Shown: positions 28,610-44,055, counted from the stretch's first letter. The stretch: 64,000 nucleotides of DNA from Thermotogota bacterium (GCA_036743375.1 DAINPP010000002.1:74757-138756); one strand, 5' to 3'. Notes: generated by a model from the sequence alone, not told the origin. Made by a program: numbers and translations.

Positions 28610-31600
28610 ATGAAGAAAATACTTTTTACGTTAATATTAATCATTTCATTAGTCTTTGTGTTTGTATCCTGTGCAAACCTGAAGCTTCCCGAAAGGATCA
28701 TTCACACATTGAATCTGAAAATACCCGGTTTGAACGAAAGATTCAAATTGGCTCCATTCGCCACAGAAACAACTGAAGCTTCGATCGTTTCAGTGCTTCC
28801 TGGATTCAAATTCATCACAGAGGATGGAACGGCGATGAGACTCTATTATGCCACACAAGTCAGCATCGGCTATGATGATATTTCAGAAAAGCTGGAGATT
28901 GATATTCAGTCATTGAAAGATGAGGCCTCTATTTCCTCTATCAGTACGAGCGTCGATATCGCCTTTTCAGATAAACTCGGTGACTTCACACTGCCGACGA
29001 TAGAAGCCTCATTCACACTGCCGGATTTTCAGATGGAAGGGACTTCGCTCATCATCAATTTTGACAAACCGGAGATAAATATCACCATCGCGTCGGAAAC
29101 CGTTGATGTGAACAGGCTTTACGTTGCAACGGAAACGGTCAGAAACATGCTGTTTAACAATACCAACATCACCGACGGGGTCATCATAAAGGGTGGAACC
29201 ATCGACATAACGGCAACAAACACGACCGATGCAACCTTCACCATTTCATTAAAGGCGGAGAATACGCCCAACACATTCGCTCAGTCCGGAGAAATAACGA
29301 TCACCGGAGGAGATAATCCCTCCCCGGTTTCCTTCCGTGGCGGAACGGGCCAGATTAACCTTGATATCGATGACATTCTGAGTGAAGACGCCACCATTAC
29401 GTTCGTTTCAACGGCCCTCGAACTCCCCCTCAAAGGGGGAACGCTGACATTGGACTTTGATATCAGCGATCTGGAAATTCTACTCGATAAGACCGAGTCG
29501 GCTTCAAATACGATCCCCGTCATAGCCGGGTCACCAGTTCGTACATGTGGAACGGTCTTTTCAATCAACACGGGATTGACTGAAGAGGCCACCTTGACAG
29601 GGGGAACACTTCAGGTATCGGGGGAGAACAATGCAGACAGCGAAATAGAATCTATGACCGTGAGTGTTCGAAATGAAAAGGGTGAAGTCATCGCAACACT
29701 CGATCTTGACAACGTGCCGGTATCCGATACTCAATACCGGACAACACCTTTCAGTACACCGGTTTTCATCAGCGACACGGCAAGTCTCACCGTTCTTGCC
29801 ACTTTAACGACGTTGCCCGCAACGGACGGCAGTATTACGATAACGGCAACCTTTAACGGGATACAGGTTCAGATTGCCAATCCGGTGAATTTTTCCGCCG
29901 AAGAGATAGAATTCGGATCGGCTCCGGATTTTGGAAGCAGCAGTCTCTTTACCATAGAACAACTCGCCACCGATACCGGTGAGCTCTCCGTAAATCCGGC
30001 AACACTGACCATCAACGTAAAAGGGCAGCAGGAGCTGGACGGATTGGGACTTGATCTGAATATACTGATCAACGATACGTCGAAGGGGACCTTTGATCTC
30101 AACATGGGGCAGGCCACGGGTCTCGTCATGGACCTCTCGGATACACGCTTCACGAGACAGGGAACCTTCACGATTCTTGCAACCCCTTATCTTGCACCGG
30201 ATAATACGCGGGCCTTCTTCGAAGGGCATCCTGAATTCGAGCCTTTTATCGATATGCAGCTGCTTTACGGAACGGATGTCATCCTCGACACACCAATCAC
30301 ATACAGCACTTCGGAAAGGGTAGAGACCGGACTCACTTCCGATTTTATCTTCGACAGTGTAACACTTAACGGGACACTTTCTTTCGATACGGCTATTCAG
30401 ACCTTGCCTCTTGAAGAGGATTATTCCGCTTCTGTAACGATAAAGGAGATCTTCGGAAAAACGATCGTGGCTACGTCCGTCGGTAATGGCAGCAATCGGA
30501 TAAACATAGATGGAAGTACGATCGGGGCCACCGATCTCGAGATCAGATTTGATTTTGTCACAGCGGAAGAACCGGTCAACATTGACTTCAACACGGAATA
30601 TGATGCCTCCGCCACGGCTATTCCGGACATCGGTATTTCAAACATTGCGAATCTCACGTTAAAGCCGGAAAGCTCATCACAGGCCATTCCACCAGTCAGC
30701 GGTCTTGTTCATGCAACCTTCCAGAGCGCAGACCTGAATATCGCCGTTGATTCCGATGCCCCTGCCATTGCACAGAGATTGTTCACCAGGGATATAAACC
30801 TGGATACGTTCAAGGCCACCTTGACAACGACAACAGATGCGTATCTCATAGAGTTCACGAGATCTGGTGATCTATATACGGCAAGCCTTGCCGATATCGA
30901 ACTCAACGGAGAGGGGGCAACACTGACACTCGGACCCCTTTCACTCGAATTCACCGATGAGGACGCCCTGAATCTCCCAAATCAGATCGATATCGCGGCC
31001 AGCATGACCAACGTCGTTTTCAGTCAGATCACCGTTGATGTCGCCGATTTCTATGACGATCTACAGGTAGCAGAATCTGAAACGTTTGATATACCGGAAG
31101 AGGCAAAGGATTATATCAAAGCCATCGTTCTTTCGGGAGATCCGAGGGTGAAGATCGAATGGTTCAACAACACACCGCTTGAATTCAACATCAGGGCGGC
31201 CGTCTCCAACGATATCCTTGACGAGTTCATCACGCTTTCCAACACGGGTGATGCGGCCAGTACAACCTGGATTGATCTGCCAAAGATCATCGATATAGAA
31301 GGCCTGGATTCCGTTTCGTTTGACCTTGAAGCGTCCCCGAATGGGCTCAATGCTGCTGAACAGCAGCTCACGATCAACAATTTCGTCTTCGACGCGCTGG
31401 ATGATTACAGAGTTGCGGCTACGGTTACCTTCAGAGATTTTTCTGAAAGCGTCATGCCGAGAGGTGAGACGATTACGATCAGTGAAGTCGTTCTCTATGG
31501 GGAAATCGATGAAGCCCTGTTCGATTTCATGAGGGATCAATTACCGGCTTTCTGGACGGACTATGCCGGTCAGATTCAGATCGATGATACACTGACGGAG

Positions 31601-32326
31601 GCCTTTGTAGAAATTGATGAAAAGATTCTGACTGAAAATCCGGATCTTGTGGCTACACTAACCATCTCCGGTAAGCCATCGGGCATCATCATCTCTGAAA
31701 TTCCGATAACGCTCGATACCGACACTCATTTTGAAGCGAATATCAATGAATTTCTTTCAAACCCGAGTACGGATCTTTCGTTCGGCATCGTTGCCCAAAT
31801 TGATGAGGCAACGGTAAATCTTGACAGTATCAGCGAAGATGCAACAGACCTGTTCGCCGCCAGTGTAACGGTCAGCATACCGGTCAGGTTCACGGTGGCT
31901 GAAGATATTTCGCTGCTCAGTGATACGATAAATCTCGAGGATGAACTGAACATCGAACTGAATGACCTGGATGCCATACTGAACATGATTCAATCCGCTA
32001 CCGCCGTTGTAACGGCTGTCAACAACTCCGGTGTTTCGGTTAAACTGGAACTCAGATGGGATTCGGCAGCCGGTGAACCGATCATCACCAATCCGCAGGG
32101 TGGGGCACTTGTTACACTAACAGACGGCACGTCCTCAAAATTCATCGTTACACTCGGTTCCGGAAACGATGCAAAGGACTTGCTTGAAAAGAATATCTAT
32201 GCACACATCATTCTTCCCGATTCAAACGGAGAATATTACACCATCATGGGAGATTCCGCCGTTGATCTTTCTATCTACCTCGATACGGTCGTAAGAGTAG
32301 AAATCCCCCTGGAATCTGAAAGGTAG
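28610..32326 (+). CDS. Giant acidic Thr/Ser/Asp/Glu/Ile-rich lipoprotein (1238 aa), likely a cell-surface protein. No recognisable enzymatic domain
   Basis: Signal peptide with lipobox MKKILFTLILIISLVFVFVS-C. Only one other Cys. Low-complexity beta-rich composition. Own extended -10 promoter (TGcTATAAT), GGGAGG SD, and a strong bidirectional terminator directly downstream. Confidence 0.75.
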   Translation: MKKILFTLILIISLVFVFVSCANLKLPERIIHTLNLKIPGLNERFKLAPFATETTEASIVSVLPGFKFITEDGTAMRLYYATQVSIGYDDISEKLEIDIQSLKDEASISSISTSVDIAFSDKLGDFTLPTIEASFTLPDFQMEGTSLIINFDKPEINITIASETVDVNRLYVATETVRNMLFNNTNITDGVIIKGGTIDITATNTTDATFTISLKAENTPNTFAQSGEITITGGDNPSPVSFRGGTGQINLDIDDILSEDATITFVSTALELPLKGGTLTLDFDISDLEILLDKTESASNTIPVIAGSPVRTCGTVFSINTGLTEEATLTGGTLQVSGENNADSEIESMTVSVRNEKGEVIATLDLDNVPVSDTQYRTTPFSTPVFISDTASLTVLATLTTLPATDGSITITATFNGIQVQIANPVNFSAEEIEFGSAPDFGSSSLFTIEQLATDTGELSVNPATLTINVKGQQELDGLGLDLNILINDTSKGTFDLNMGQATGLVMDLSDTRFTRQGTFTILATPYLAPDNTRAFFEGHPEFEPFIDMQLLYGTDVILDTPITYSTSERVETGLTSDFIFDSVTLNGTLSFDTAIQTLPLEEDYSASVTIKEIFGKTIVATSVGNGSNRINIDGSTIGATDLEIRFDFVTAEEPVNIDFNTEYDASATAIPDIGISNIANLTLKPESSSQAIPPVSGLVHATFQSADLNIAVDSDAPAIAQRLFTRDINLDTFKATLTTTTDAYLIEFTRSGDLYTASLADIELNGEGATLTLGPLSLEFTDEDALNLPNQIDIAASMTNVVFSQITVDVADFYDDLQVAESETFDIPEEAKDYIKAIVLSGDPRVKIEWFNNTPLEFNIRAAVSNDILDEFITLSNTGDAASTTWIDLPKIIDIEGLDSVSFDLEASPNGLNAAEQQLTINNFVFDALDDYRVAATVTFRDFSESVMPRGETITISEVVLYGEIDEALFDFMRDQLPAFWTDYAGQIQIDDTLTEAFVEIDEKILTENPDLVATLTISGKPSGIIISEIPITLDTDTHFEANINEFLSNPSTDLSFGIVAQIDEATVNLDSISEDATDLFAASVTVSIPVRFTVAEDISLLSDTINLEDELNIELNDLDAILNMIQSATAVVTAVNNSGVSVKLELRWDSAAGEPIITNPQGGALVTLTDGTSSKFIVTLGSGNDAKDLLEKNIYAHIILPDSNGEYYTIMGDSAVDLSIYLDTVVRVEIPLESER

Positions 32327-32395: not shown

Positions 32396-34417
32396 TTATT
32401 TTCTGTTCTCAAAAACTCTCTCGATCAATTCATCATTAGCGACAAACGGCAGGGTAATATGATCCTCTCCAACATGCTGTTTATTATATTCGGCCACGGT
32501 TGAAATCGAATTTTCATTTCTCGCCCATGCCCTTCTCGCAACACCACCCATTACATCCCAGGGGATTGCCTTCATGATGATATCGTCCACTCTTTCACTC
32601 CCGTCAAGAACCAGTCCGAATCCGCCGTTAACCGCTTTCCCGATACCGACACCGCCACCGTTGTGAAGCGCGATGAGACTCATTCCCCTTGAGGCGTTCC
32701 CCGCAAAACACTGGGTAGCCATATCCGCCATGATCATACTGCCGTCCTTGATATTCGAGGTCTCCCTGTACGGGGAATCTGTCCCGCCCGTATCATGATG
32801 ATCCCTTCCCAGCATGACCGGTCCGATCTCGCCATCTCTGACCATCTGATTGAATTTCAGGGCAATATCCCTTCGGCCAAGCGCATCCTGATAAAGGATT
32901 CTCGCCTGTGTTCCAACAACGAGGCCATTCTGTTCCGCATCTCGGATCCATATATAATTATCCCTGTCCTGTCCCCTTCTCTCAGGATCTATACAGTTCA
33001 TTGCCGCCTTGTCCGTTTTCATAAGATCTTCATGCCTTCCACTGAGGCAGACCCATCTGAACGGTCCGTACCCGTAATCAAAGAGCATCGGCCCCATGAT
33101 ATCCTCTACATAGGAGGGGAAGATGAATCCTTCTGAAGTATCCACTTTATTCTTTGCGATACCCTTTTCTCCCGTATCAAACACGGCCTTCATAAAGCTG
33201 TTTCCATAATCGAAGAAATAGGTTCCTCTTTCAACGAGTGTCTTGATCAATTTGTAATGCTTCTTCAGGGTTTCATCTACAAGCTTCCTGAAGCCGGCCT
33301 TATCTTCTGCCAGCATGCTTGTCCTTTCATCAAAACTGAGCCCCTGCGGACAGTATCCGCCGTCATACGGTACATGACAGGAGGTCTGATCCGAAAGCAG
33401 TTCAATCTCCACATCCTTGTCGACGGCATACTCAAGCAGATCGACGATGTTCCCGTGATAGGCAAGTGAGGCGGCTTTCCCTTCATTTTTCAGATGATCT
33501 GCCGCTTTGAAGACCTCGGCCGGATCGGCGTACAGCTCATCGATCCACCCCTGAACCTTTCTTGTCTCGATCCTCGAAAGATCTACTTCGGCGATGATCC
33601 CCACACCATTTGCAATCTTTACGGCTTTCCCCTGTGCACCACTCATGCCACCAAGTCCGGAAGAGACAAAGATATGACCTTTCAGATCGCCATCTTCCGG
33701 TATTCCCAATTTAATTCTGCCGGCATTCAGAATGGTGTTGAACGTTCCGTGGACGATCCCCTGCGGTCCGATATACATCCATCCGCCGGCCGTCATCTGC
33801 CCGTAATTGGCAACACCAAGTGCCGCTGCCTTATGCCAGTCTTCCTGATTGTCAAACTGTCCGATCATCAGTGAATTCGTGATGATGACCCTCGGACTTG
33901 ACTTGTGTGATTTAAAGAGTCCCAGAGGATGTCCGGAAGAAACTACCAGTGTCTGTTCATCCGTCAGCTGTTCCAGATATTTTTTAATCAACCTGTACTG
34001 CATCCAGTTCTGGCAAACCTGCCCGGTTTCTCCATACGTAACGAGTTCATAGGGATAAAGGGCGATCTCAAAATCCAGATTGTTGTCTATCATCACCTGA
34101 CAGGCCTTTCCTTCGATACAGTTTCCCTTGTATTCCTCTATCGGCTTTCCGTAAAGTCTTCCCGCCGGTCTGTATCGATAACCGTAAATACGTCCCATAC
34201 TGTAAAGCTCATCGAGAAACTCCGGTGCGAGCTCTTCATGAAGCTGCTCCGGAATATACCTGAGCGCATTTTTTAAAGCCAGCTTGATCTCGCGTTCGTT
34301 GAGTGTCAGTTCCCTTTTCGGAGCTCTTCGGATTCCAGCCATGAATTCCTTTTTTTCCGGTAATTCATCGCTTAATCGAATAGTCATTGCCTCCATTGCC
34401 AGTACATTTTCTCTCAT
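32396..34417 (-). CDS. hutU: Urocanate hydratase (urocanase), long ~670-aa form
   Basis: Conserved blocks GQMTAGGWMYIGPQGIVHGTFNT, LVVSSGHPLG, GGGVGIG. No hutH, hutI or hutG nearby. Confidence 0.85.
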   Translation of the reverse strand: MRENVLAMEAMTIRLSDELPEKKEFMAGIRRAPKRELTLNEREIKLALKNALRYIPEQLHEELAPEFLDELYSMGRIYGYRYRPAGRLYGKPIEEYKGNCIEGKACQVMIDNNLDFEIALYPYELVTYGETGQVCQNWMQYRLIKKYLEQLTDEQTLVVSSGHPLGLFKSHKSSPRVIITNSLMIGQFDNQEDWHKAAALGVANYGQMTAGGWMYIGPQGIVHGTFNTILNAGRIKLGIPEDGDLKGHIFVSSGLGGMSGAQGKAVKIANGVGIIAEVDLSRIETRKVQGWIDELYADPAEVFKAADHLKNEGKAASLAYHGNIVDLLEYAVDKDVEIELLSDQTSCHVPYDGGYCPQGLSFDERTSMLAEDKAGFRKLVDETLKKHYKLIKTLVERGTYFFDYGNSFMKAVFDTGEKGIAKNKVDTSEGFIFPSYVEDIMGPMLFDYGYGPFRWVCLSGRHEDLMKTDKAAMNCIDPERRGQDRDNYIWIRDAEQNGLVVGTQARILYQDALGRRDIALKFNQMVRDGEIGPVMLGRDHHDTGGTDSPYRETSNIKDGSMIMADMATQCFAGNASRGMSLIALHNGGGVGIGKAVNGGFGLVLDGSERVDDIIMKAIPWDVMGGVARRAWARNENSISTVAEYNKQHVGEDHITLPFVANDELIERVFENRK

Positions 34418-34566: not shown

Positions 34567-34575
34567 TGATATAAT
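34567..34575 (+). promoter_or_regulatory. Extended -10 element (TGaTATAAT) for the acyltransferase/GltS-like/GT2 operon
   Basis: TGaTATAAT lies 22 nt upstream of the GTG start, with a weak -35. Confidence 0.45.
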
Positions 34576-34596
34576 AGACCATACTGAGGAAATCAG

Positions 34597-35676
34597 GTGA
34601 AAATCTTGCGAAAGAGGACTAAATTACTATGGAAAATTGGAATTCCATGTATCAGACTCTGGATAAGGCTCAGATACGATATCAAAGTAATCGGAGAATT
34701 GCCAAAACCACCTTATTTACTGCTTTCAAATCATTCACAGAATGTTGATCCCTTTTTTATACTAGCCGAAACTTCGAAGCCTGTTTCCTTTGTCATAAAC
34801 AACGCCGCTTTCCAGAACCCCGTTATAGGACTCGTTCTGCGATGGATAGACAGTATTCCGACTCAAAAATCATCGAAAGATGCCAAGACCGTCATGAGGA
34901 TCTTCCACTGGATAAAGGATGGAAGGATAGTGGGAATCTTTCCCGAAGGACATGCAACATGGGATGGGGAAAGTATCCCCGCGGTAGGGGCCACGGCAAA
35001 ACTGCTCAATCGCATCAAAATCCCGATCGTAACGATTACCATCAAGGGTGGATACTTGGTCAACCCCCGATGGGCAACCTATCGAAGAAAGGGAAAGATA
35101 GAAATACATATCGGAACCTTTGAAGATGAACAGGCGCTCGAAGCACTCAAACATTCCGACTGGCAATGGCAGGAGGAAACCGGGAATCTGTACAGGGGAA
35201 AAAATAAGGCCGTCGGTATCGAAAAGATCATGTGGTTCTGTCCGGAATGCGGGAGTTACCGGGGGATCCATTCCATCGGGGACAAAGTGGTCTGTAGAAA
35301 CTGTACTTATAAAAAAAACGTCAACGAAGACGGAAGGATCGGAGATCAAACGGTCAAACAGGTCCTTGATCGGCAGAGGGAATTGCTTAAGGTATACACC
35401 CTGAAGAAATTCCGACATGAATTCAGAAACTGCCGTCTGAAGATGTGGGGAAAAGGCAGAACTTTACGTTTGAAAAGAGAAAAAGGAACGCTGATCATCA
35501 CTGACGATCATCTGAAATTTAATGGTGAGGTCTACGAATTTCAGCGAATTTCGGGATTGAACACCTATGTATCAAGTATCGTTGAGTTTATATGCGATGA
35601 TAACAAACTGGTGAGGATCAAAACCAAAGAGGATTCCTTACTGATCACCGAATTATTAAAACTTATGGGGGTGTAG
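34597..35676 (+). CDS. Lysophospholipid/1-acylglycerol-3-phosphate acyltransferase family protein (PlsC-like) with a C-terminal Cys4 zinc-ribbon domain
   Basis: GTG start after a GAGGAA SD. Acyltransferase motif I NHSQNVD and motif III FPEG. C-terminal CPECG...CRNC. Confidence 0.65.
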   Translation: MKILRKRTKLLWKIGIPCIRLWIRLRYDIKVIGELPKPPYLLLSNHSQNVDPFFILAETSKPVSFVINNAAFQNPVIGLVLRWIDSIPTQKSSKDAKTVMRIFHWIKDGRIVGIFPEGHATWDGESIPAVGATAKLLNRIKIPIVTITIKGGYLVNPRWATYRRKGKIEIHIGTFEDEQALEALKHSDWQWQEETGNLYRGKNKAVGIEKIMWFCPECGSYRGIHSIGDKVVCRNCTYKKNVNEDGRIGDQTVKQVLDRQRELLKVYTLKKFRHEFRNCRLKMWGKGRTLRLKREKGTLIITDDHLKFNGEVYEFQRISGLNTYVSSIVEFICDDNKLVRIKTKEDSLLITELLKLMGV

Positions 35677-35678
35677 TC

Positions 35679-37031
35679 ATGTACTGGCAACAAATCGACG
35701 ATGTAATCTATATACTGATCCTTTTTGCCCTGGCTGTTCTGATGAAAAGACTTATTCCTGCATTCAGAAGATATCTCATTCCAAATTCTATCGTTGCAGG
35801 TTTTTTCGGTCTCCTGCTCGGGCCAAATCTTCTGAACCTGTTACCATTAAATCCGGACACACTTGGCGGAATCATCTACCATCTCATGGCCATAGGATTC
35901 ATCAGTCTCAGTCTTCGAACACCTGAAAAAACGGGTAAAAGCTGGAATTCCATGAATGCCGGAATGATCATCGTATCTACCTATCTGATACAGGGACTCC
36001 TGGGATTTGCCATGTCCTTTTTATGGAGCCTCGCGGATAAAAACGTTTCACCCATCATGGGGTTGATCCTTCCTATGGGATTTGGACAGGGACCCGGACA
36101 GGCCTTCTCAGTCGGAAACCAGTGGGAACAGCTCGGGATGCAGAATGGTGGTGCAATCGGTCTCGCCGTAGCCGCGGCCGGTTTTGGATGGGCCACCGTT
36201 GGTGGGATTATTATCCTCAACATCCTGCTGAAAAAGAAGAGAAAAAAGGATGCACCGGCTGAAGTGGAGATGAAAAAAGAGATTGTCGTCAAAGATTATG
36301 AATTTTCCGATATGGATGGCATGACCATTCAGTTTGTGTTCATCGGAATCATATATGCGGCGGTTTATCTGATCCTCGGCGGAGTCAACCGGTTACTCGC
36401 CTCATTTGGCACTTTTGGTGAAAGCCTCGGTTCCGTTCTCTGGGGATTCCATTTCGTCTTCGGTGCCATATTAGCCATTCTCTTCAGAACCGTTTACAAC
36501 AAGATGCACAAAAAAGGGGTGGCAAAGGAAAGATACCTGAACAACTTCATGCTCCAGAGAATCGCGGGATTCGTATTCGACTTCATGGTAGCCGCTTCCA
36601 TCAGTGCCGTGACCTTCAAGCGAATCGCCACCTCTTTCTGGCCGATCTTCTTCATCACCTTTGCCGGCGGTGTTCTGACCTTCTTCTACGTCTCCTTCAT
36701 CGTCAACCGGACGATGAAAGAGCATCGCCTCGCCAATACCATCGCGTTCTTTGGGCATCTGACCGGAACGATTTCCACGGGTATGGCGCTTTTAAGAGAA
36801 GTCGATCCGCTGATGAAAAGCGGAGCCCCTGAAAACATGATATTCGGAAGCGGGGTGGCCATTTTCTTTGGATTCCCGCTGATGGCTCTTCTGAGTTTAC
36901 CACCTATCGGATTAAAGACGGGAAATACGATGATGTACCTGTATACATTCCTCGGATTGATTGCCTATGCGGTGTTTTTGTACGTCTACTGGTATTTTCT
37001 TGCCAAAAGAAAGAACAAGAAGACCTATTGA
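35679..37031 (+). CDS. Polytopic membrane protein, GltS-like (sodium/glutamate symporter fold family)
   Basis: 450 aa with about 10-12 TM. LIPNSIVAGFFG...ISLSLR...LILPMGFGQGPGQA resembles GltS (IPEPVAGG...MSLRD...LSGGHGTGAA). It starts 3 nt after the acyltransferase stop. Confidence 0.45.
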   Translation: MYWQQIDDVIYILILFALAVLMKRLIPAFRRYLIPNSIVAGFFGLLLGPNLLNLLPLNPDTLGGIIYHLMAIGFISLSLRTPEKTGKSWNSMNAGMIIVSTYLIQGLLGFAMSFLWSLADKNVSPIMGLILPMGFGQGPGQAFSVGNQWEQLGMQNGGAIGLAVAAAGFGWATVGGIIILNILLKKKRKKDAPAEVEMKKEIVVKDYEFSDMDGMTIQFVFIGIIYAAVYLILGGVNRLLASFGTFGESLGSVLWGFHFVFGAILAILFRTVYNKMHKKGVAKERYLNNFMLQRIAGFVFDFMVAASISAVTFKRIATSFWPIFFITFAGGVLTFFYVSFIVNRTMKEHRLANTIAFFGHLTGTISTGMALLREVDPLMKSGAPENMIFGSGVAIFFGFPLMALLSLPPIGLKTGNTMMYLYTFLGLIAYAVFLYVYWYFLAKRKNKKTY

Positions 37032-38266
37032 TGAAGGGAAGTGAGGCTCCGATGAAAAAGATTCGCGAACGTGCGTTCATACAGATAGTGATCATCTTTC
37101 TCACGTTGATTATCGCTAATCTATGGAAGGATCCGGGGATGATCGAATTATCAGCAAAAGCGTTTTTAACCGTATCAATCGTGTTTTTTATCGTCATGCT
37201 TGTCAAGGTACTTAAGATGAAAAAAGATGAACAGGCGGCCTGGGCGGTTAATTCGTTTGATGATAGCCTGTCCGTCTGCATTACAACCGTCTGTAAGAAT
37301 GAAGGAGAGACGATACTCAATACCGTCAGGCATTATATGAGTTTTTCCGACAACGTGAGATTTGTCCTCTATGATGATCATTCCACAGACGGCTCCTTTG
37401 AAAGACTACAGGAGATGATGGAAACCTATAAAGGCCGACTTGTCCTGAAAAAGCTTAAAAAAAGGGATATTCAGATCCACCCGAAGGCCTTTGCCGTAGA
37501 GGATGCGTTCAACGAGATTGATTGTGATTATTTTCTGGTGATCGATTCGGATACGGTGATATCCGAGACCGATTTCAACCATGCGATCTGCGCCATGATC
37601 AACGAGAAGACGGATGTCCTGCATATCACGCGGAGAAACAACCTGAAACCCTGTCTTCCCTGTCAGATGGGGGACAAAGAGGAACTCATGAACATGGGAC
37701 TGCAGCTTCTGAGGCTTCAACCCGCTAATTTCCCGGGTTCGGGTTATTTTGTCAGGGCAACCCTCGTTAGGGACTTTAAATACGATGAAGACAGTCTGAG
37801 CGAAGACAATTATTTCCTCAAGGCGATCAAAAGGAAAACGGATAAGATCGAATTTTTCCTGACGCTTACCGCATCTGAAAGGGCTCCTGAGACTTTCGGA
37901 GATTTTGTAAAACAGAGGGTCAACTGGTTGAAGTTGGGGATTCCCTATTATCTGAAACAAGAATTGTCCCTGATGACACTCGGAAATATTCTCTTTACGC
38001 TGATCTTTTCGGCCCTGTTTAACCCGTTCAGTCCGGGACTCGTATTCATTGCATCCTGTACCGGTGTCATCCTCGGGATGCAGCTCGCCTTTGCCGTGGC
38101 GCTTACCCATGAAAATCCACTGAAGACCTTGTATCATACCCTCTGTTATCTCCTGACCATCGGCTATGTCCTGGGTTTTGTCTATTTCTGGCTTCAGATC
38201 ATGATATCTGCCGGAAAGAGTCGGTTTGCCGTAAAAAAGAACTGCATGGGTGAAAATGGGGTTTAA
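37028..38266 (+). CDS. Membrane-embedded family-2 glycosyltransferase (processive GT2-like, with N-terminal and C-terminal TM segments)
   Basis: DxD-type motifs YDDHSTDGS and IDSDTV, and a Q-R-V-N-W variant of QxxRW. Its ATG overlaps the upstream stop (ATGA). Alternative start at 37052. Confidence 0.6.
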   Translation: MMKGSEAPMKKIRERAFIQIVIIFLTLIIANLWKDPGMIELSAKAFLTVSIVFFIVMLVKVLKMKKDEQAAWAVNSFDDSLSVCITTVCKNEGETILNTVRHYMSFSDNVRFVLYDDHSTDGSFERLQEMMETYKGRLVLKKLKKRDIQIHPKAFAVEDAFNEIDCDYFLVIDSDTVISETDFNHAICAMINEKTDVLHITRRNNLKPCLPCQMGDKEELMNMGLQLLRLQPANFPGSGYFVRATLVRDFKYDEDSLSEDNYFLKAIKRKTDKIEFFLTLTASERAPETFGDFVKQRVNWLKLGIPYYLKQELSLMTLGNILFTLIFSALFNPFSPGLVFIASCTGVILGMQLAFAVALTHENPLKTLYHTLCYLLTIGYVLGFVYFWLQIMISAGKSRFAVKKNCMGENGV

Positions 38267-38341: not shown

Positions 38342-39184
38342 TTATTCAGCGTATTCGATGAAGATCTTTGACAGAATTTCCTTCTGTCCCCTGTCTTTGA
38401 AACTGTGATCAAGATCCAGTTCGAATCCCGTCGTACCGGAATTCTGATGAACCTGGAACTGTATTCTGTTGACGTAAGTCATGATATCCATTTTCCCGAA
38501 CACCCCGTCATTCACCTGGATATCGGTGACATCGTCAAAGTATTCGAGTATTGGTTCTGATTCGGGTGTTACCTCTCTTGTAATTTCTTCCCCCCTTGAA
38601 ATAAAAGTGATCGACGTGTTGTTCATAGTGGGCAGGATGTAATAAAGGCCATTCACAAAGATATACAAACCCTTTTCACCAAAATAGAAAGCGGCTTCCA
38701 TGAAAAGTGGCTCATCTCCGCCGACCGGTCTGAGCAATCTGTATGAACCCCCTTCGAAGCGAACCTTAAAGTAATCCCCTTTTGTCTCCACATCGCTCTG
38801 CGCATTGTCACTCTGTATGGAAATCTTTTCGATGTGATGTTCTGTCGGATCAAGTACCGGATAGAGGAAAGGTGCCGTGTTCCAGAAGAATCCACTTTCC
38901 ATCCTAACACCGTTGATAATCGGTGTGATACCCATGTAATGTTTGTCATCCGAGATGTTGTCGCAATCTATCTCAAACACATACTCGGGATGTGCCGGGT
39001 GATAGAAGGTGATGGCATATTCTTCCATATCGATATCGAACACCCATTCGGATGTTGCATCTTTCTGAAAGCTGATGGCCGGAAGCTGTGGTGCTGCGGC
39101 AGACTCTTCGGCAAAGGCTGCTGCGGAAATAAATGTCAAAAACAAAACGCTCAGAAGTATGATCCTCTTCAGATTTTTTTTCAT
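38342..39184 (-). CDS. Secreted hypothetical protein (280 aa)
   Basis: Signal peptide MKKNLKRIILLSVLFLTFISAAAFA. GGGAGGAACAA SD. No family recognised. Confidence 0.6.
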   Translation of the reverse strand: MKKNLKRIILLSVLFLTFISAAAFAEESAAAPQLPAISFQKDATSEWVFDIDMEEYAITFYHPAHPEYVFEIDCDNISDDKHYMGITPIINGVRMESGFFWNTAPFLYPVLDPTEHHIEKISIQSDNAQSDVETKGDYFKVRFEGGSYRLLRPVGGDEPLFMEAAFYFGEKGLYIFVNGLYYILPTMNNTSITFISRGEEITREVTPESEPILEYFDDVTDIQVNDGVFGKMDIMTYVNRIQFQVHQNSGTTGFELDLDHSFKDRGQKEILSKIFIEYAE

Positions 39185-39361: not shown

Positions 39362-39778
39362 TCAGTAACCGAGAATAAACTCGATAAAGTACCCGTTCCG
39401 GTAGACGATAAAAGTAATCACAGCCGCCGGACTCCCGATTCCCGAGACCACACTCATGAAATACTGCTCCGAGCTGATGGCAAAATCCCGGAATTCGGAC
39501 AGATTATAGACATAGTTACCTGAAATATTCATCACTGTATTGTTCTCGATACCGGGAGCATAGATCGCCGTATAGCAAGCTGCGATGATCAGATCACCGG
39601 TCTGCAGAAAACGGCTGGCAACTGAATTCGGATAGATGTACGTCACCTGCATCGCCCGGTAAAACCCAGAAAGATTGACATTGACATATTTGGCCTGTAT
39701 GCCAAGTGTATAGGAAAAGGCCGTTGCACAGATCAAAACCACTGTTAGTAGAAGGATTAATTTTTTCATACCGTTCAC
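39362..39778 (-). CDS. Secreted hypothetical protein (138 aa)
   Basis: Signal peptide MNGMKKLILLLTVVLICATAFS. AGGAGG SD upstream. Confidence 0.55.
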   Translation of the reverse strand: MNGMKKLILLLTVVLICATAFSYTLGIQAKYVNVNLSGFYRAMQVTYIYPNSVASRFLQTGDLIIAACYTAIYAPGIENNTVMNISGNYVYNLSEFRDFAISSEQYFMSVVSGIGSPAAVITFIVYRNGYFIEFILGY

Positions 39779-39958: not shown

Positions 39959-41833
39959 CTATTCCGTTTCTACAAAATCCTCTTCAAACTGACTCTTGTA
40001 AAGATCCGCATAGAATCCGCCCTTCTCGAGGAGTTCTTCGTGATTTCCCTGTTCGACGATGTCCCCTTCATTCATGACGAGGATGAGATCGGCATCTCTG
40101 ATCGTGGAAAGTCTGTGTGCGATGACGAAACTGGTTCGATTCTTCATGAGGTTGTTCATGGCTCGCTGAATTTGAACTTCCGTTCTCGTATCAACGGAAC
40201 TCGTCGCTTCATCGAGGATGAGTACCTTCGGATCCGCCAGAATGGCCCTGGCAATGGTTACAAGCTGTTTCTGACCCTGTGAGATATTCGTCTGCTCCTC
40301 GTTGAGAACGAGATTGTATCCATCCGGTAGCGCATGAACAAATGAGTCAACATGGGCGGCCCTGGCAGCCGCAAGAACTTCCTCATCCGTCGCATTGAGT
40401 CGGCCGTATTTGATGTTATCCCAGATGCTGCCGTTATAAAGCCAGGTATCCTGAAGTACCATGCCAAAGTTTTCCCTCAGGTCATATCTTGTGAAATCTT
40501 TGATATCATGTCCGTCAAGCAGGATCTGACCGGAATTGACATCGTAGAATCTCATCAACAGTTTAACAATCGTCGTTTTACCGGCACCGGTCGGCCCAAC
40601 GATGGCGATGTTGTGGCCTTTTTCCACTTCACAGGAGAAATTCTTGATGATGATCTTTTCAGGATCATAGCCGAATCGAACGTTTTTGAATTCGACATGA
40701 CCTTCATGCTGAACCCCCTTGATCGGATTCGTGACTTCTGCGATTTCCTCATCTTCCTCGAGGAATTCAAAGACCCTTTCAGCCGCCGCAGCCGTCTGCT
40801 GGAAGACATTCATGATATTTGCTATCTGTGCGATAGGCTGTGTGAACGATCTGACATACTGTATGAAGGCCTGAATGTCTCCAACCGTGATCATACTTCT
40901 GACGGCAAACCAGCCGCCCATGATCGTGATCAGCACGTAGCCGAGGTTTCCGACAAACATCATGATCGGGTGCATCATACCCGAAAGGAACTGGGATTTC
41001 CAGGCAGAATCGTAGAGTTCATCGTTGAATTTGTCAAAGGTTCTGATGCTGTCTTCTTCCCCGTTGAATGCCTTCACGACGATATGTCCGCCATACATCT
41101 CCTCCACATGTCCGTTGACCTTCCCGAGATAACTCTGCTGTTTCTTGAAGTATTTCTGCGAGGCCTTTACCACAACGGCAATCAATCCCGTAGAAACCGG
41201 CAGGATGAGCAGGGCGATCAATGTAAGTTGCCAGCTGATGGAGAACATCATGATCATGACACCCACAACGGTGGTAATCGATGTGATGATCTGTGTGAGA
41301 CTCTGATTGAGTGTTCGGCTGATGGTGTCGACATCATTGGTGACTCTTGACAGCACATCGCCCTGAGAGGTCTTATCAAAATATTTTAAAGGAAGTCTGT
41401 TGATCTTCTCAGAGATCTCCCTTCTGAATTTATAGGTGATCTTTGCCGAAACACCTGACATGATCCAACCCTGAATATAGGTGAACAGAGCACTTAATAC
41501 GTATAAACCGAGCAGAAACATCATAGTCTTTGCGATTGATTCAAAGTTAATACCTTCACCGGTTCCCCTGACCTTATTCATGATTCCTTCAAAGACTTCC
41601 GTGGTAACATTTCCGAGTATCTTTGGGCCGATGATGGAAAAAACAGCCCCAGCTGCGGCAAACAGGAAGACTATCAGAATGAGTACCTGATATTTTTTCA
41701 TGTACTGTACCAGTTTTTTTACCGTTCCAGTAAAATTCTTGGCCTTTTCTCCACCATGCATCACTCCGGGACCGCCCATGGGACCGCCGTGGTTCTGTTG
41801 CATTTTTCTATCCTTGTTGTTATTTTCACTCAT
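39959..41833 (-). CDS. ABC exporter, fused permease and ATPase (MDR-type half transporter, subunit B), with a Gly/Pro/Met/His-rich N-terminal tail
   Basis: 6-TM domain then an NBD with Walker A GPTGAGKTT, signature LSGGQKQ, Walker B ILILDEATS. The ATG at 41833 overlaps the upstream stop (ATGA). The ORF track gives a longer frame from 41887. Confidence 0.8.
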   Translation of the reverse strand: MSENNNKDRKMQQNHGGPMGGPGVMHGGEKAKNFTGTVKKLVQYMKKYQVLILIVFLFAAAGAVFSIIGPKILGNVTTEVFEGIMNKVRGTGEGINFESIAKTMMFLLGLYVLSALFTYIQGWIMSGVSAKITYKFRREISEKINRLPLKYFDKTSQGDVLSRVTNDVDTISRTLNQSLTQIITSITTVVGVMIMMFSISWQLTLIALLILPVSTGLIAVVVKASQKYFKKQQSYLGKVNGHVEEMYGGHIVVKAFNGEEDSIRTFDKFNDELYDSAWKSQFLSGMMHPIMMFVGNLGYVLITIMGGWFAVRSMITVGDIQAFIQYVRSFTQPIAQIANIMNVFQQTAAAAERVFEFLEEDEEIAEVTNPIKGVQHEGHVEFKNVRFGYDPEKIIIKNFSCEVEKGHNIAIVGPTGAGKTTIVKLLMRFYDVNSGQILLDGHDIKDFTRYDLRENFGMVLQDTWLYNGSIWDNIKYGRLNATDEEVLAAARAAHVDSFVHALPDGYNLVLNEEQTNISQGQKQLVTIARAILADPKVLILDEATSSVDTRTEVQIQRAMNNLMKNRTSFVIAHRLSTIRDADLILVMNEGDIVEQGNHEELLEKGGFYADLYKSQFEEDFVETE

Positions 41834-44055
41834 GCCAGTTCCTCCTCTGAAAGCTGTGACAGAGCAATTTCCTTGTACGTCTGACAACTCTTCATCAGCT
41901 CATTGTGTTTGCCAGTACCGACAATATTTCCCTCATCAAGAACGAGTATCTGATCGGCGTTCTTTATCGTTGCAATCCTCTGACCGACAATGATCATCGT
42001 GCTGTCGCCGGTTTCCTTTTTCAGTTTTCTTCGGAGTGCGGCATCTGTTTTGAAATCAAGTGCTGAAAAACTGTCATCGAACAGATAAATCTGAGGCTTT
42101 TTCAGCAGGGCTCTCGCGATGGACAGTCGCTGTTTCTGTCCACCGGATACGTTCGTTCCACCCTGTGATATGGCCGACTCGTATCCTTCATCCTTCGAAT
42201 CTATGAATTCAACGGCCTGTGCGATTTCCGCAGCCTTTTCCATCTCCGCCTGTGTGGCATTTTCATCCGCATATTTCAGATTCGATTCGATTGTCCCGCT
42301 GAAAAGTATCCCCTTTTGTGGTACATACCCTATTCGATCTCTCAGATCATGCTGATTGACATCACGGATATCGATATCGTCTATGAGAATCTGTCCGCCA
42401 CACACATCGTAAAATCTGGGGATCATATTTAACAAGGTGGATTTTCCCGAGCCGGTCGAACCGATAATGGCCGTTGTCTGCCCTGGCATTGCCGTAAAGT
42501 TGATCTTGTTGAGGATATTTTCCTCAGCTCCCGGAAATTTGTAACAGACGTCTTTAAATTCAATCTTTCCCTTGAAGGTCTTCGGAAATACCTTGGGATT
42601 CTCAGGATCTTTGATCTGTGGTTTAACTTTTAGTATCTCGGAGACACGCACACCGGAGACCGAGGCCCTCGGAATCATGATGAACATCATCGTCAGCATG
42701 ATAAAGGAGAAGATGATCTGCATCGCATACTGGATATAAGCCATCATATCTCCAACCTGCATACCGGATGACTCTATCTGATGGGCACCCACCCAGACGA
42801 TCAGCAGCATGACACCGTTCATGACAAACATGATGACGGGCATCATCGAGACCATGACACGGTTGACAAAGAGGTTAGTGTTTGTAACATCCTTGTTTGC
42901 GCCTTCAAACCGTTCCTCTTCAAATTCCTGAGTGTTAAAGGCTCTGACAACCATCAGACCGGAAAGGTTCTCCCTTGTGACCAGATTCAAACGATCGATC
43001 AGCTTCTGAATCTTCTTGAATTTAGGCAGGGCAATCGTAAAGACTATTCCGACGAGACCGAGAATGACGATAACGGCGAGCGCGATGATCCAGGACATGG
43101 ATACGCTCTTTTCAAGTGCCTTGATTACACCACCAACACCTATTATTGGTGCATAGAACACCATTCGGATGATCATGACGACGACAAGCTGTATCTGAGT
43201 AATATCGTTGGTGGTTCGTGTGATGAGTGAGGCCGTTGAGAACTGGGCAAACTCCGTATTTGAAAAGTTTTCCACCTTTCTGAAGACATCTCTTCTCAGC
43301 GTTCTGGCCGAGGCGGCGGCTATCTTTGAGGCGATAAAGGCGACGAGAACCGTACAAAGTGTACTTAGAAGCGTTACAAGGACCATACGGAATCCTGCCC
43401 AGAGTATATAATCACTCTGCATTTTTGAGGTATCCATTCCAAGTTCGACATATTCCTCTTTGATGGCAAGGGTAGCCGCCTGATTAACCGTACTTTCACC
43501 CATCACTTCTACCATTGCATCAATCTGGCCGAGCATCTCAAGCCGCTGGGCCTCAGGGATGAACTGCATCAACTTGAAGATATCAGTCCCTTCGGGTATG
43601 GTAATCCCATTCGGCATGGAAAAATTTTCATTTCCCTCGGCTCCGCCGTTCTTGATCCCGGAATACGCCATCAAGGCCTTGCCAAGAGTCAGTCTGATGT
43701 CCGCCTTATCCGTAATCTCCCCTGATTTGAGAACATAAACCGCCTGATCTTCAAGTGCGGGGTATCGTTTCAGATTTTCCTCATAGGATGCGGAATTTTC
43801 ATCCACAAGGGTATAGAGACTTAAGATCTTTTCCTTATCTTCGCGGCTCATAAACAATGAGACCTTGTCAAATGTTTCCCGGCTGATCGCCTCAGGGATC
43901 GCCTCTTCGATTCCACCCTGCTGAATACCCACATTTACAATATCCGACATATAATCGGGCAGGGCCAGTTCACTCATAGCCTGAACAAAGAGCAAGGCAA
44001 TCGCAACAACGATGAAGACCGTATACGGCTTTAAGTATCTTATCAGTTTAAACAT
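41830..44055 (-). CDS. ABC exporter, fused permease and ATPase (subunit A), with a roughly 200-aa extracytoplasmic insertion between TM1 and TM2
   Basis: Walker A GSTGSGKST, signature VSGGQKQRLSIARA, Walker B YLFDDSFSALD. A long hydrophilic loop follows TM1. Confidence 0.8.
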   Translation of the reverse strand: MFKLIRYLKPYTVFIVVAIALLFVQAMSELALPDYMSDIVNVGIQQGGIEEAIPEAISRETFDKVSLFMSREDKEKILSLYTLVDENSASYEENLKRYPALEDQAVYVLKSGEITDKADIRLTLGKALMAYSGIKNGGAEGNENFSMPNGITIPEGTDIFKLMQFIPEAQRLEMLGQIDAMVEVMGESTVNQAATLAIKEEYVELGMDTSKMQSDYILWAGFRMVLVTLLSTLCTVLVAFIASKIAAASARTLRRDVFRKVENFSNTEFAQFSTASLITRTTNDITQIQLVVVMIIRMVFYAPIIGVGGVIKALEKSVSMSWIIALAVIVILGLVGIVFTIALPKFKKIQKLIDRLNLVTRENLSGLMVVRAFNTQEFEEERFEGANKDVTNTNLFVNRVMVSMMPVIMFVMNGVMLLIVWVGAHQIESSGMQVGDMMAYIQYAMQIIFSFIMLTMMFIMIPRASVSGVRVSEILKVKPQIKDPENPKVFPKTFKGKIEFKDVCYKFPGAEENILNKINFTAMPGQTTAIIGSTGSGKSTLLNMIPRFYDVCGGQILIDDIDIRDVNQHDLRDRIGYVPQKGILFSGTIESNLKYADENATQAEMEKAAEIAQAVEFIDSKDEGYESAISQGGTNVSGGQKQRLSIARALLKKPQIYLFDDSFSALDFKTDAALRRKLKKETGDSTMIIVGQRIATIKNADQILVLDEGNIVGTGKHNELMKSCQTYKEIALSQLSEEELA

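Follow-up and report, generated by a model that had tools for sequence, protein, structure and literature searches.

The locus described here raises the question whether an acyltransferase, a membrane protein with a glutamate-symporter-like fold and a membrane glycosyltransferase, which are encoded one after the other, serve a common function. The window, that is the whole stretch of DNA analysed, comprises 64,000 nt from a Thermotogota MAG, and the feature under study extends over positions 34567-38266. The three genes, here called A, B and C (Table 1), had been tentatively assigned by a sequence-only reading to one pathway, in which an acylated glycolipid or exopolymer would be produced and then exported or flipped. 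In the ORF analysis of the window all three turned out to be genuine and to lie on the same strand.

Table 1. Features of the locus, with positions counted from the first letter of the window
Feature	Position	Strand	Basis or remark
Extended -10-like motif TGATATAAT	34567..34575	+	read from sequence; motif match only
GAGG Shine-Dalgarno-like motif, 7 nt ahead of the GTG of A	34586..34589	+	read from sequence
Gene A, GTG start, 359 aa	34597..35676	+	ORF, PF01553
A: LPLAT (PlsC-like) catalytic domain, aa 34-150	34696..35046	+	NHSQNVD and FPEG
A: Cys4 zinc ribbon, aa ~212-240	35230..35316	+	CPEC...CRNC; invariant Cys, weak Zn-ribbon profile matches
A: PH-like beta-sandwich and C-terminal helix, aa ~274-356	35416..35664	+	
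Gene B, 450 aa	35679..37031	+	ORF; homologs, model, Foldseek, hhalign
B: predicted re-entrant hairpin 1, aa 125-151, tip GFGQGPGQA	36051..36131	+	model, H125-137 and H139-151
B: predicted re-entrant hairpin 2, aa 350-375, tip GxLTGTISTG	36726..36803	+	model, H350-362 and H365-375
Gene C, 412/411/404 aa	37028/37031/37052 to 38266	+	PF13632, PF00535
138-aa gene accompanying the GT2, not A-B	39362..39778	-	80% identity to sister-genome counterpart (locus L087)

The junction between A and B is as tight as had been described: the TAG of A ends at 35676 and the ATG of B begins at 35679, which leaves a gap of 2 nt, and a GGGGGTG run is found immediately 5' of the B start. The classic ATGA overlap which had been placed at 37028 is not present. 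Instead, the B/C junction reads TAT TGA TGA AGG, with the TGA at 37029-37031 as the stop codon of B. Candidate starts of C are TTG 37028 (4-nt overlap), ATG 37031 (1-nt overlap) and ATG 37052, the latter with a GAGG 5 nt 5' of it. Gene callers differ between a 411-aa and a 404-aa form of C, and depending on the start chosen, B and C are spaced by -4 to +20 nt. A scan of the region revealed no terminator-like site at either junction. Since the three genes abut and no such site was found between them, C is probably co-transcribed with A-B in this species. The extended -10 promoter postulated ahead of A did not hold up equally well. The motif TGATATAAT is present and accounts for the start coordinate of the feature, but the consensus scan gave no -35/-10 pair at this site, and promoter-like sites are no more frequent in the region than in shuffles; the upstream promoter is a motif match and not evidence.

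Which of the three genes belong together can be seen from other genomes. In 51 of the 73 B loci, a homolog of A lies directly 5' of B in the same orientation, covering at least five phyla (the 51 loci span Thermotogota, Bacillota with Bacilli, Clostridia and Halanaerobiales, Atribacterota, Spirochaetota and Izimaplasma). In the reverse test, for which an independent A clade from metagenomes was used, B lies directly 3' of A in 60/60 loci. Between A and B the median gap amounts to 3 nt in the genome loci (n=53) and -4 nt in the metagenome loci (n=66). A and B are the only co-conserved part of the three-gene group, and very strongly so; they are translationally coupled, and the functional unit is a two-gene cassette A-B and not a three-gene operon. 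In view of both results across phyla, it is unlikely that the A-B adjacency was merely inherited vertically within a few lineages. No earlier description of such a module was found in the literature searched, which agrees with the previous remark, in which a GltS-fold protein linked with an acyltransferase was not recognised as part of any described system.

C does not take part in this conservation. Outside this species, no match to the C of the window could be identified by tblastn beside A-B in 80 genome and 80 metagenome loci, and apart from A and B no recurrent neighbour exists across the loci examined. Of the three genes which had been grouped together, A and B are hence kept side by side, while C was not detected beside them in any of the 160 loci. 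Absence of co-conservation of the three genes had been named beforehand as an outcome that would refute the common pathway. The comparison with a sister genome, in which A is 71% and B 90% identical to the proteins of the window, points in the same direction. The C ortholog of that genome (68% identity) is found about 400 kb away from A-B, has its own 243-bp upstream region and adjoins the same 138-aa gene as C does here. Moreover, the DNA is collinear only up to window position 37008, which practically coincides with the stop codon of B. It was a species-specific rearrangement that put C behind B, and C stands outside the conserved A-B function.

The description of C itself as a membrane GT2 with TM segments on both sides was confirmed. 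PF13632 (40.5 bits) and PF00535 (34.1 bits) both score above their cutoffs, and the hydropathy profile contains two hydrophobic segments at aa ~12-59 and three at aa ~313-393. This 2+3 architecture is that of synthase-type GT2 enzymes, and together with the likely co-transcription it speaks for a pathway in which A, B and C jointly produce a glycolipid or exopolymer. The best NCBIfam match, TIGR03937 (PgaC/IcaA), would fit as well, but it covers only the N-terminal 140 residues with 42 bits, far below the cutoff of 422.3. In contrast to PgaC/IcaA, the position of the Q-x-x-R-W motif reads QRVNW, no pgaABD or icaDBC partners are encoded near C, and the search of 5.8 billion proteins yielded only 10 homologs. 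As a conserved pathway A-B-C is largely refuted by the 160 loci and the separate history of C, and we regard a joint product of the three genes as very improbable.

By its domains, A is a peripheral PlsC-like acyltransferase that carries a PH-like domain in addition to its Cys4 zinc ribbon. PF01553 matches aa 34-150 with 55.4 bits (cutoff 23, E=7.2e-15). The motifs NHSQNVD (aa 45-51, with H46 and D51) and FPEG (aa 115-118, with F115, E117 and G118) are part of this domain, and HX4D and FPEG are invariant across 19 aligned family members. The four cysteines C215, C218, C233 and C236 are invariant in the alignments A2, A3 and A4, and zinc-ribbon profiles match A weakly. The LPLAT domain and the C-terminal ribbon had already been recognized correctly, whereas the PH-like domain behind them had been overlooked. 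A has a PlsC-type alpha/beta fold; the predicted model (pLDDT 86.9) includes an N-terminal amphipathic helix, and no hydrophobic TM segment was found by hydropathy analysis. With HX4D, FPEG, PF01553, the amphipathic helix and the lack of a TM segment A resembles PlsC from T. maritima (PDB 5kym), and in structure it comes closest to PlsC, a lyso-PA acyltransferase, and not to a GPAT. However, both proteins are only 20% identical, and TIGR00530 reaches 44.1 bits on A, below the curated cutoff of 102.95. Therefore, A is not to be filed as PlsC proper. The best NCBIfam match is, at the domain level only, the acyltransferase domain of an Aas-type acyl-ACP--phospholipid O-acyltransferase (E=9e-15), and no AMP-binding domain was detected in A by Pfam.

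A further difference to PlsC is the C-terminal extension of about 200 residues with ribbon and PH-like domain. It sets these proteins apart as a family of their own, which comprises 2,232 clusters at 50% identity. The fusion of acyltransferase and zinc ribbon, previously considered unusual, is thus the invariant architecture of a large family. Unlike PlsC, A also has B directly downstream in every locus of the independent A clade. Enzymes of the A type (LPLAT-CxxC..CxxC-C-terminal module) are in addition found fused to a DedA/VTT membrane domain. Since these fusions retain the zinc-ribbon/PH module, it is not simply a device for docking to B. The membrane partner of A-type enzymes seems to be interchangeable.

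For the B protein of the window no match was obtained in Pfam, NCBIfam and PDB sequence searches. More than 1,200 homologs could be identified, which match PF03616 and TIGR00210 weakly: PF03616 is matched by 3 of 12 family members (best E=3.3e-14), and for TIGR00210 the family member P0101 reaches 53.6 bits with a cutoff of 310.75. The curated ESS/GltS threshold of either model is not reached by B of the window. An hhalign comparison of the family profile with E. coli GltS gave E=2.7e-5 and a probability of 74% over 320 columns (21% identity), and the motifs of both hairpins line up. The AlphaFold model (pLDDT 82, pTM 0.82) is composed of two 5-TM repeats with one re-entrant hairpin each, which corresponds to the CitS/GltS elevator fold, and the top Foldseek matches are CitS structures (probability 1.0, TM ~0.5, up to 0.51-0.54). 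The tip of hairpin 1 corresponds in this alignment to SGGHGTGAA of E. coli GltS; its residues G134, Q137, G138, P139, G140, Q141 and A142 show no or hardly any variation. The tip of hairpin 2, with G359, T362, G363, T364, I365, S366 and T367 invariant, corresponds to GFGLGATPTA.

By these indirect routes the earlier assignment of B as a GltS-like polytopic protein is supported, and profile and model suggest a distant, superfamily-level relative of ESS/GltS (TC 2.A.27) with a CitS-type (2HCT) elevator fold. The hairpin tips nevertheless differ between B and GltS (GQGPGQ versus GGHGTG, and TGTISTG versus LGATPTA). The genomic partner described for GltS is a TAXI binding protein or nothing (PMC12344293), whereas that of B is a lipid acyltransferase.

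A is not found at all B loci. It is missing in 22 of the 73, some of which also lack a nearby lipid gene (L032 and L046 from Brachyspira; L022, L043 and L054), so B is able to work without A. Where A is absent, other neighbours point to a lipid role of B. In all seven Actinomycetota loci with upstream sequence, the gene beside B belongs to the PlsY family (PF02660, E 1e-23 to 1e-26) and is transcribed divergently. The encoded proteins carry DRPGTAGAGR in place of the glycine-rich HGSGNxGTTN of canonical PlsY, and their acceptor may therefore not be G3P. In the loci L051 and L053 from two related MAGs, a gene for an AMP-binding acyl-CoA/ACP-ligase-like protein lies directly 5' of B, and genes for an LPLAT and a DAGK/YegS lipid kinase are located alongside. 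From its domains this gene set looks Aas-like in split form.

These loci also bear on the view that B is an ordinary glutamate-type Na+ symporter, with A as its regulator or as a PlsC paralog of housekeeping function, and that their adjacency reflects co-regulation or assembly and no common substrate. In databases many B homologs are named 'ESS family glutamate:Na+ symporter', about a third of the B loci are without A, and the PH-like and zinc-ribbon domains could be protein-binding modules. However, the names are automatic, B of the window lies under every GltS model threshold, and the alternative neighbours of B are again lipid acyltransferases. The strict succession of B after A with overlapping stop and start codons across phyla is hard to explain without a functional dependency, and we consider this view quite improbable.

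A and B probably act together on a membrane-lipid precursor. Our main reading, to which we give a probability of roughly 0.45, is that A-B may be a transport-coupled acylation module that follows the logic of LplT-Aas, with a lysophospholipid as the most likely acceptor. The domain architectures, fold assignments, co-conservation and tight spacing are observed, whereas the direction of transport, the substrate and a physical A-B interaction are inferred. B would be a secondary transporter of the GltS/ESS lineage with a CitS-like elevator fold, through which an anionic acyl acceptor with a glycerol phosphate moiety would reach the cytoplasmic side of the membrane. This acceptor would be a lysophospholipid or, less likely, G3P or a glycerophosphodiester, to which A would transfer an acyl group from acyl-ACP or acyl-CoA. 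The invariant HX4D/FPEG motifs and the Aas-type match point to a lyso-lipid-type enzyme A, and the CitS fold, the GltS homology and the invariant hairpin tips to a transporter B. In the searchable literature no biochemical or genetic data were found on any member of the A or B family.

LplT and Aas are encoded as a bicistronic pair, occur as a fusion in some bacteria and associate with each other in a complex (PMC11416262). A-B likewise is a two-gene unit of an integral-membrane transporter-fold protein and a peripheral acyltransferase with an LPLAT domain, its bicistronic arrangement recurs (51/73, 60/60) and DedA-LPLAT fusions exist. Further likenesses are the match of A to Aas-type NCBIfam models and the split Aas-like set which adjoins B in two loci. 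There are clear differences as well. LplT belongs to the MFS, while B has the ESS/CitS elevator fold and is no MFS protein. Aas includes an acyl-ACP synthetase domain, the absence of which from A counts against an LplT-Aas-like reading; a separate AMP-binding gene 5' of B is restricted to L051 and L053. The Cys4 ribbon and the PH-like domain are not described for Aas, and in A-B the acyltransferase gene comes first. A-B would therefore be an analogue of LplT-Aas at most and not a member, built from parts that seem unrelated or only distantly related.

The CitS and GltS families are characterised as transporters of small soluble anions, and no lipid-moving member is known from the ESS or 2HCT families; both points count against a lipid. 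Alternatively, B might import a small soluble acyl acceptor which is acylated by A, as a vectorial acylation or salvage into lipid synthesis and without lipid flipping. Candidates are sn-glycerol-3-phosphate, a glycerophosphodiester (GPG, GPE, GPC) or another hydroxy or amino acid. That B by fold and homology belongs to the Na+-coupled small-anion symporters CitS and GltS is in line with this proposal, as is the PlsY-family enzyme as alternative partner in Actinomycetota, since the canonical PlsY acceptor is soluble G3P. On the other hand, A is structurally closest to PlsC, the DedA fusions and the acyl-ligase context resemble lipid-phase remodelling systems more, and the DRPGTAGAGR motif casts doubt on G3P as the acceptor of these PlsY-like proteins. 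Taken together, import of a soluble acceptor appears possible but rather unlikely. The PlsY association is equally compatible with soluble G3P and with a lysolipid.

If A-B indeed carries out transport-coupled acylation, two large unnamed families would obtain a function, namely the A-type module with ~2,200 clusters (50% identity) and the B family, of which over 1,200 close homologs are automatically annotated as glutamate symporters. Lysolipid or lipid-precursor salvage or repair would then occur in lineages beyond the Gram-negative carriers of LplT-Aas, and the GltS/CitS elevator fold would prove to serve a wider range of substrates. LplT-Aas is known mainly from Gram-negative bacteria and is not known from the lineages of Thermotogota, Bacillota, Spirochaetota and Atribacterota. 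It is conceivable, although we would not expect it, that the B family comprises the first ESS/CitS-fold elevator transporters of a membrane lipid, acting as lysophospholipid flippase or importer, that A-B is the lysophospholipid repair system of these four phyla and their relatives, and that the DedA-fused A-type enzymes represent a third variant. As a practical correction, proteins of the B subfamily should not be called Na+/glutamate symporters by homology alone. Cultured carriers suitable for direct testing are found among Paenibacillus, Virgibacillus, Gracilibacillus, Clostridium thermarum and Thermosipho.

Three ORFs on the same strand fill positions 34597-38266 of the window, namely gene A for an LPLAT acyltransferase with a Cys4 zinc ribbon and a PH-like domain, gene B for a GltS-like membrane protein, and gene C for a membrane GT2 glycosyltransferase. 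The tight coupling described in the sequence-only reading holds for A and B, which are separated by a gap of only 2 nt. For B and C it depends on the start of C, on which the gene callers differ: with TTG 37028 the two genes overlap by 4 nt, with ATG 37031 by 1 nt, and with ATG 37052, the candidate that has the best Shine-Dalgarno motif, they are 20 nt apart. The extended -10 promoter is likewise present as a motif only; a consensus scan for promoters and terminators missed it, found no -35 partner there and returned sites in the region no commoner than in shuffles. GAGG is found 7 nt ahead of the start codon of A. The assemblies GCA_964453385.1 and GCA_035404285.1 and several digester metagenomes contain identical copies of the locus.

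Features of the A-B-C locus and its flanks (window positions)
Feature	Position	Strand	Details
ORF with lipoprotein-type signal	28610-32326	+	1,238 aa; MKK...FVSC
Urocanase gene (hutU)	32396-34417	-	upstream flank of A, divergent
Extended -10-like motif	34567-34575	+	TGATATAAT; read from sequence
Gene A	34597-35676	+	GTG start, 359 aa
Gene B	35679-37031	+	450 aa; stop TGA 37029-37031
Gene C	end 38266	+	candidate starts TTG 37028, ATG 37031, ATG 37052
280-aa ORF with signal peptide	38342-39184	-	between GT2 gene and 138-aa gene
138-aa gene	39362-39778	-	downstream flank of C
Heterodimeric ABC exporter pair, then MarR gene, DegV-family gene further on	39959-44055 and beyond	-	

Protein A contains the LPLAT domain PF01553 (aa 34-150, E=7e-15) with an HX4D motif (NHSQNVD) and an FPEG motif that are invariant throughout the family, and the four cysteines of its ribbon (C215, C218, C233, C236) are invariant in all alignments made. 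Both halves of the fusion were thus read correctly from the sequence. The structure model is confident (pLDDT 86.9), hydropathy reveals no TM segment, and A stays under the PlsC equivalog cutoff. Contrary to what had been supposed, the fusion is not unusual. A profile of the ribbon and PH-like module matches 2,232 clusters at 50% identity, 1,476 of them with E<=1e-10, and therefore the LPLAT-ribbon-PH architecture is that of a large family without its own Pfam model rather than a one-off fusion. Among the best 150 of the 2,232 matches, most carry the module at about positions 210-400 of proteins of 380-430 aa, and the shorter ones resemble fragments or split genes; one protein of about 600 aa among the matches listed bears it C-terminally. 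On a Thermosipho africanus-like contig (L089, 4956-6020) A is called as a 155-aa LPLAT ORF and a 191-aa ribbon/PH ORF directly before B; the gene is either truly split there or carries a frameshift. Similar splits, or fragments, may account for many of the profile matches of 190-290 aa.

Searches of Pfam, NCBIfam and PDB sequences with B, either as single sequence or as family profile, gave nothing usable. More than 1,200 homologs of B exist, and many were automatically named 'ESS family glutamate:Na+ symporter'. PF03616 is matched by 3 of 12 diverse family members, and one member scores 53.6 bits with TIGR00210, the cutoff of which is 310.75. In hhalign, 320 columns of the family profile align with GltS of E. 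coli (E=2.7e-5), and both conserved glycine-rich motifs are in register. In the model of B (pLDDT 82, pTM 0.82) two helical hairpins (aa 125-151 and 350-375) are each placed between TM 4 and TM 5 of the respective repeat, and the best PDB matches are CitS elevator symporters (probability 1.0, TM up to about 0.5). The GltS profile alignment and the CitS match of the model support the GltS-like fold assigned earlier, with B as a distant subfamily, the substrate of which cannot be read from homology. Several Bacillaceae homologs of B are listed in NCBI/UniRef as 'S-layer homology domain-containing protein', which for polytopic proteins looks like an annotation error. In two Ornithinibacillus genomes a further ESS-like gene lies 1.5 kb downstream of A-B (L018 8837-10177, L033 8721-10199); its product, a paralog of B with about 24-25% identity, has no NCBIfam match either.

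The co-conservation of A and B was evaluated from both sides. Starting from B, 80 loci were taken from contigs of one genome per species, and in 51 of the 73 loci with enough upstream sequence a homolog of A lies directly upstream of B on the same strand. These loci belong to Thermotogota, Clostridia, Halanaerobiales, Atribacterota, Treponema and other spirochaetes, Izimaplasma and Bacilli (Tenuibacillus, Ornithinibacillus, Gracilibacillus, Virgibacillus, Bacillus coahuilensis and Paenibacillus). Starting from A, B is the next gene downstream on the same strand in 60 of 60 metagenome loci with at least 900 bp of downstream sequence, a count that refers to the independent P0143 clade of A (A4 alignment) and not to the whole A family. 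Most of the shorter contigs which keep a few hundred bases 3' of A show the start of B. From the stop of A to the start of B the median distance is 3 nt in the genome loci (n=53) and -4 nt in the metagenome loci (n=66). Were B a plain glutamate symporter to which the acyltransferase is unrelated, the adjacency in 60/60 loci and the overlaps between stop and start codons would be hard to account for. Clustering of all neighbouring ORFs in 81 loci revealed no further recurrent partner of A-B: besides A only the PlsY family (12 loci) and generic ABC ATPases recur, and the remaining clusters are antisense shadow ORFs. In Clostridium thermarum and on the Thermosipho africanus-like contig the pair stands alone amid unrelated genes.

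Gene C encodes, as described before, a membrane GT2 with TM segments on both sides; its GT2 domains are above threshold, and they are preceded by two hydrophobic segments and followed by three. The best named relative, PgaC/IcaA, is far under the cutoff, and only ten homologs were found among 5.8 billion proteins. By tblastn with C of the window no match was obtained beside A-B in 160 loci (80 genome and 80 metagenome). In the close relative OY763325.1, A (71% identical) and B (90%) lie within positions 1,389,371-1,402,714 of the chromosome, and the GT2 ortholog (68%) is encoded at about 1.81 Mb, where it is accompanied by a 243-bp upstream region and then a 135-aa gene 80% identical to the 138-aa gene of the window. 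The DNA collinearity with the A-B locus of this sister genome stops at window position 37008 and homology to its GT2 locus starts at 37221, so that the B/C junction marks a species-specific rearrangement breakpoint. The 280-aa ORF finds no tblastn match in the sister GT2 locus and looks like a further local insertion. On the evidence of the 160 loci, the clustering, the remote sister ortholog and the breakpoint, we reject the idea that the GT2 is a third member of the conserved A-B unit. Of the acylated glycolipid or exopolymer pathway suggested for the three genes, only a possible species-specific co-expression is left.

Where A is missing, genes for lipid enzymes are again found among the neighbours of B. 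A divergent PlsY-family gene (PF02660) is found beside B in 7/7 Actinomycetota loci with upstream sequence, immediately upstream in the MAGs L020, L029, L030, L037, L045, L047 and L050. Its products show DRPGTAGAGR at the position of the glycine-rich HGSGNxGTTN of canonical PlsY, and may represent a PlsY variant with altered substrate tied to the B transporter. Canonical plsY occurs near B in three Clostridia loci, directly upstream in L060 and one to two genes off in L062 and L070. In two MAGs of Clostridia, one from Oscillospiraceae and one from Clostridiales, the gene directly upstream of B encodes an AMP-binding protein resembling acyl-CoA/ACP ligases, and genes for an LPLAT and for a lipid kinase (DAGK/YegS) lie alongside. 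Enzymes of the A type are also fused behind a DedA/VTT membrane domain: P0147 and P0148 (L088, 6001-7791), both of about 600 aa, combine this domain with all parts of the A type (LPLAT, CxxC..CxxC and C-terminal module) and thereby join two families each suspected of lipid handling. On the contig of P0148, the one fusion contig read, there is no B homolog. P0193 (605 aa) is possibly another such fusion.

Our proposal for A-B, with a probability of roughly 45%, is a module in which the acylation of a glycerol-phosphate-containing acceptor is coupled to transport. The coupling of A to B, or its fusion to a DedA domain, resembles LplT-Aas in that an acyltransferase is combined with a transporter-like membrane protein. 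LplT-Aas is bicistronic and in some bacteria fused, and it forms a complex through which the acyltransferase is supplied with flipped lysophospholipid (PMC11416262). A lysophospholipid would be the most likely acceptor for the A-B module, and we regard it as rather unlikely that the acceptor is specifically a lipid. To our knowledge, the ESS and 2HCT transporters characterised are carriers of small soluble anions, and this is an argument against a lipid as substrate. As the main alternative, B would import a soluble acceptor (G3P, glycerophosphodiester) which is then acylated by A; this agrees with the transporter fold of B and the PlsY link, and less well with the structural resemblance of A to PlsC, the fusions to DedA and the acyl-ligase genes beside B.

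No description of the LPLAT-GltS pairing or of the LPLAT-ribbon-PH family was found in full-text literature searches, in line with the earlier impression that an acyltransferase together with a GltS-fold protein is not a described combination. A recent paper on GltS partnership concerns TAXI binding proteins, not acyltransferases (PMC12344293). The components of A-B come from known superfamilies, and the logic which we infer for the module has a precedent in LplT-Aas. The pair itself is widespread, unannotated and directly testable.

Some flanking genes are mentioned here for completeness. The DegV-family (fatty-acid-binding) gene downstream, past the MarR regulator, is lipid-related, with no link to A-B established. 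All close Thermotogota relatives (L007, L008, L009, L013), and no other loci, have a divergent urocanase gene upstream of A-B, which reflects synteny within the lineage and not a functional link. The 1,238-aa ORF, for which no Pfam family is on record, is kept upstream of the urocanase gene in the window species and partly in the sister genome.
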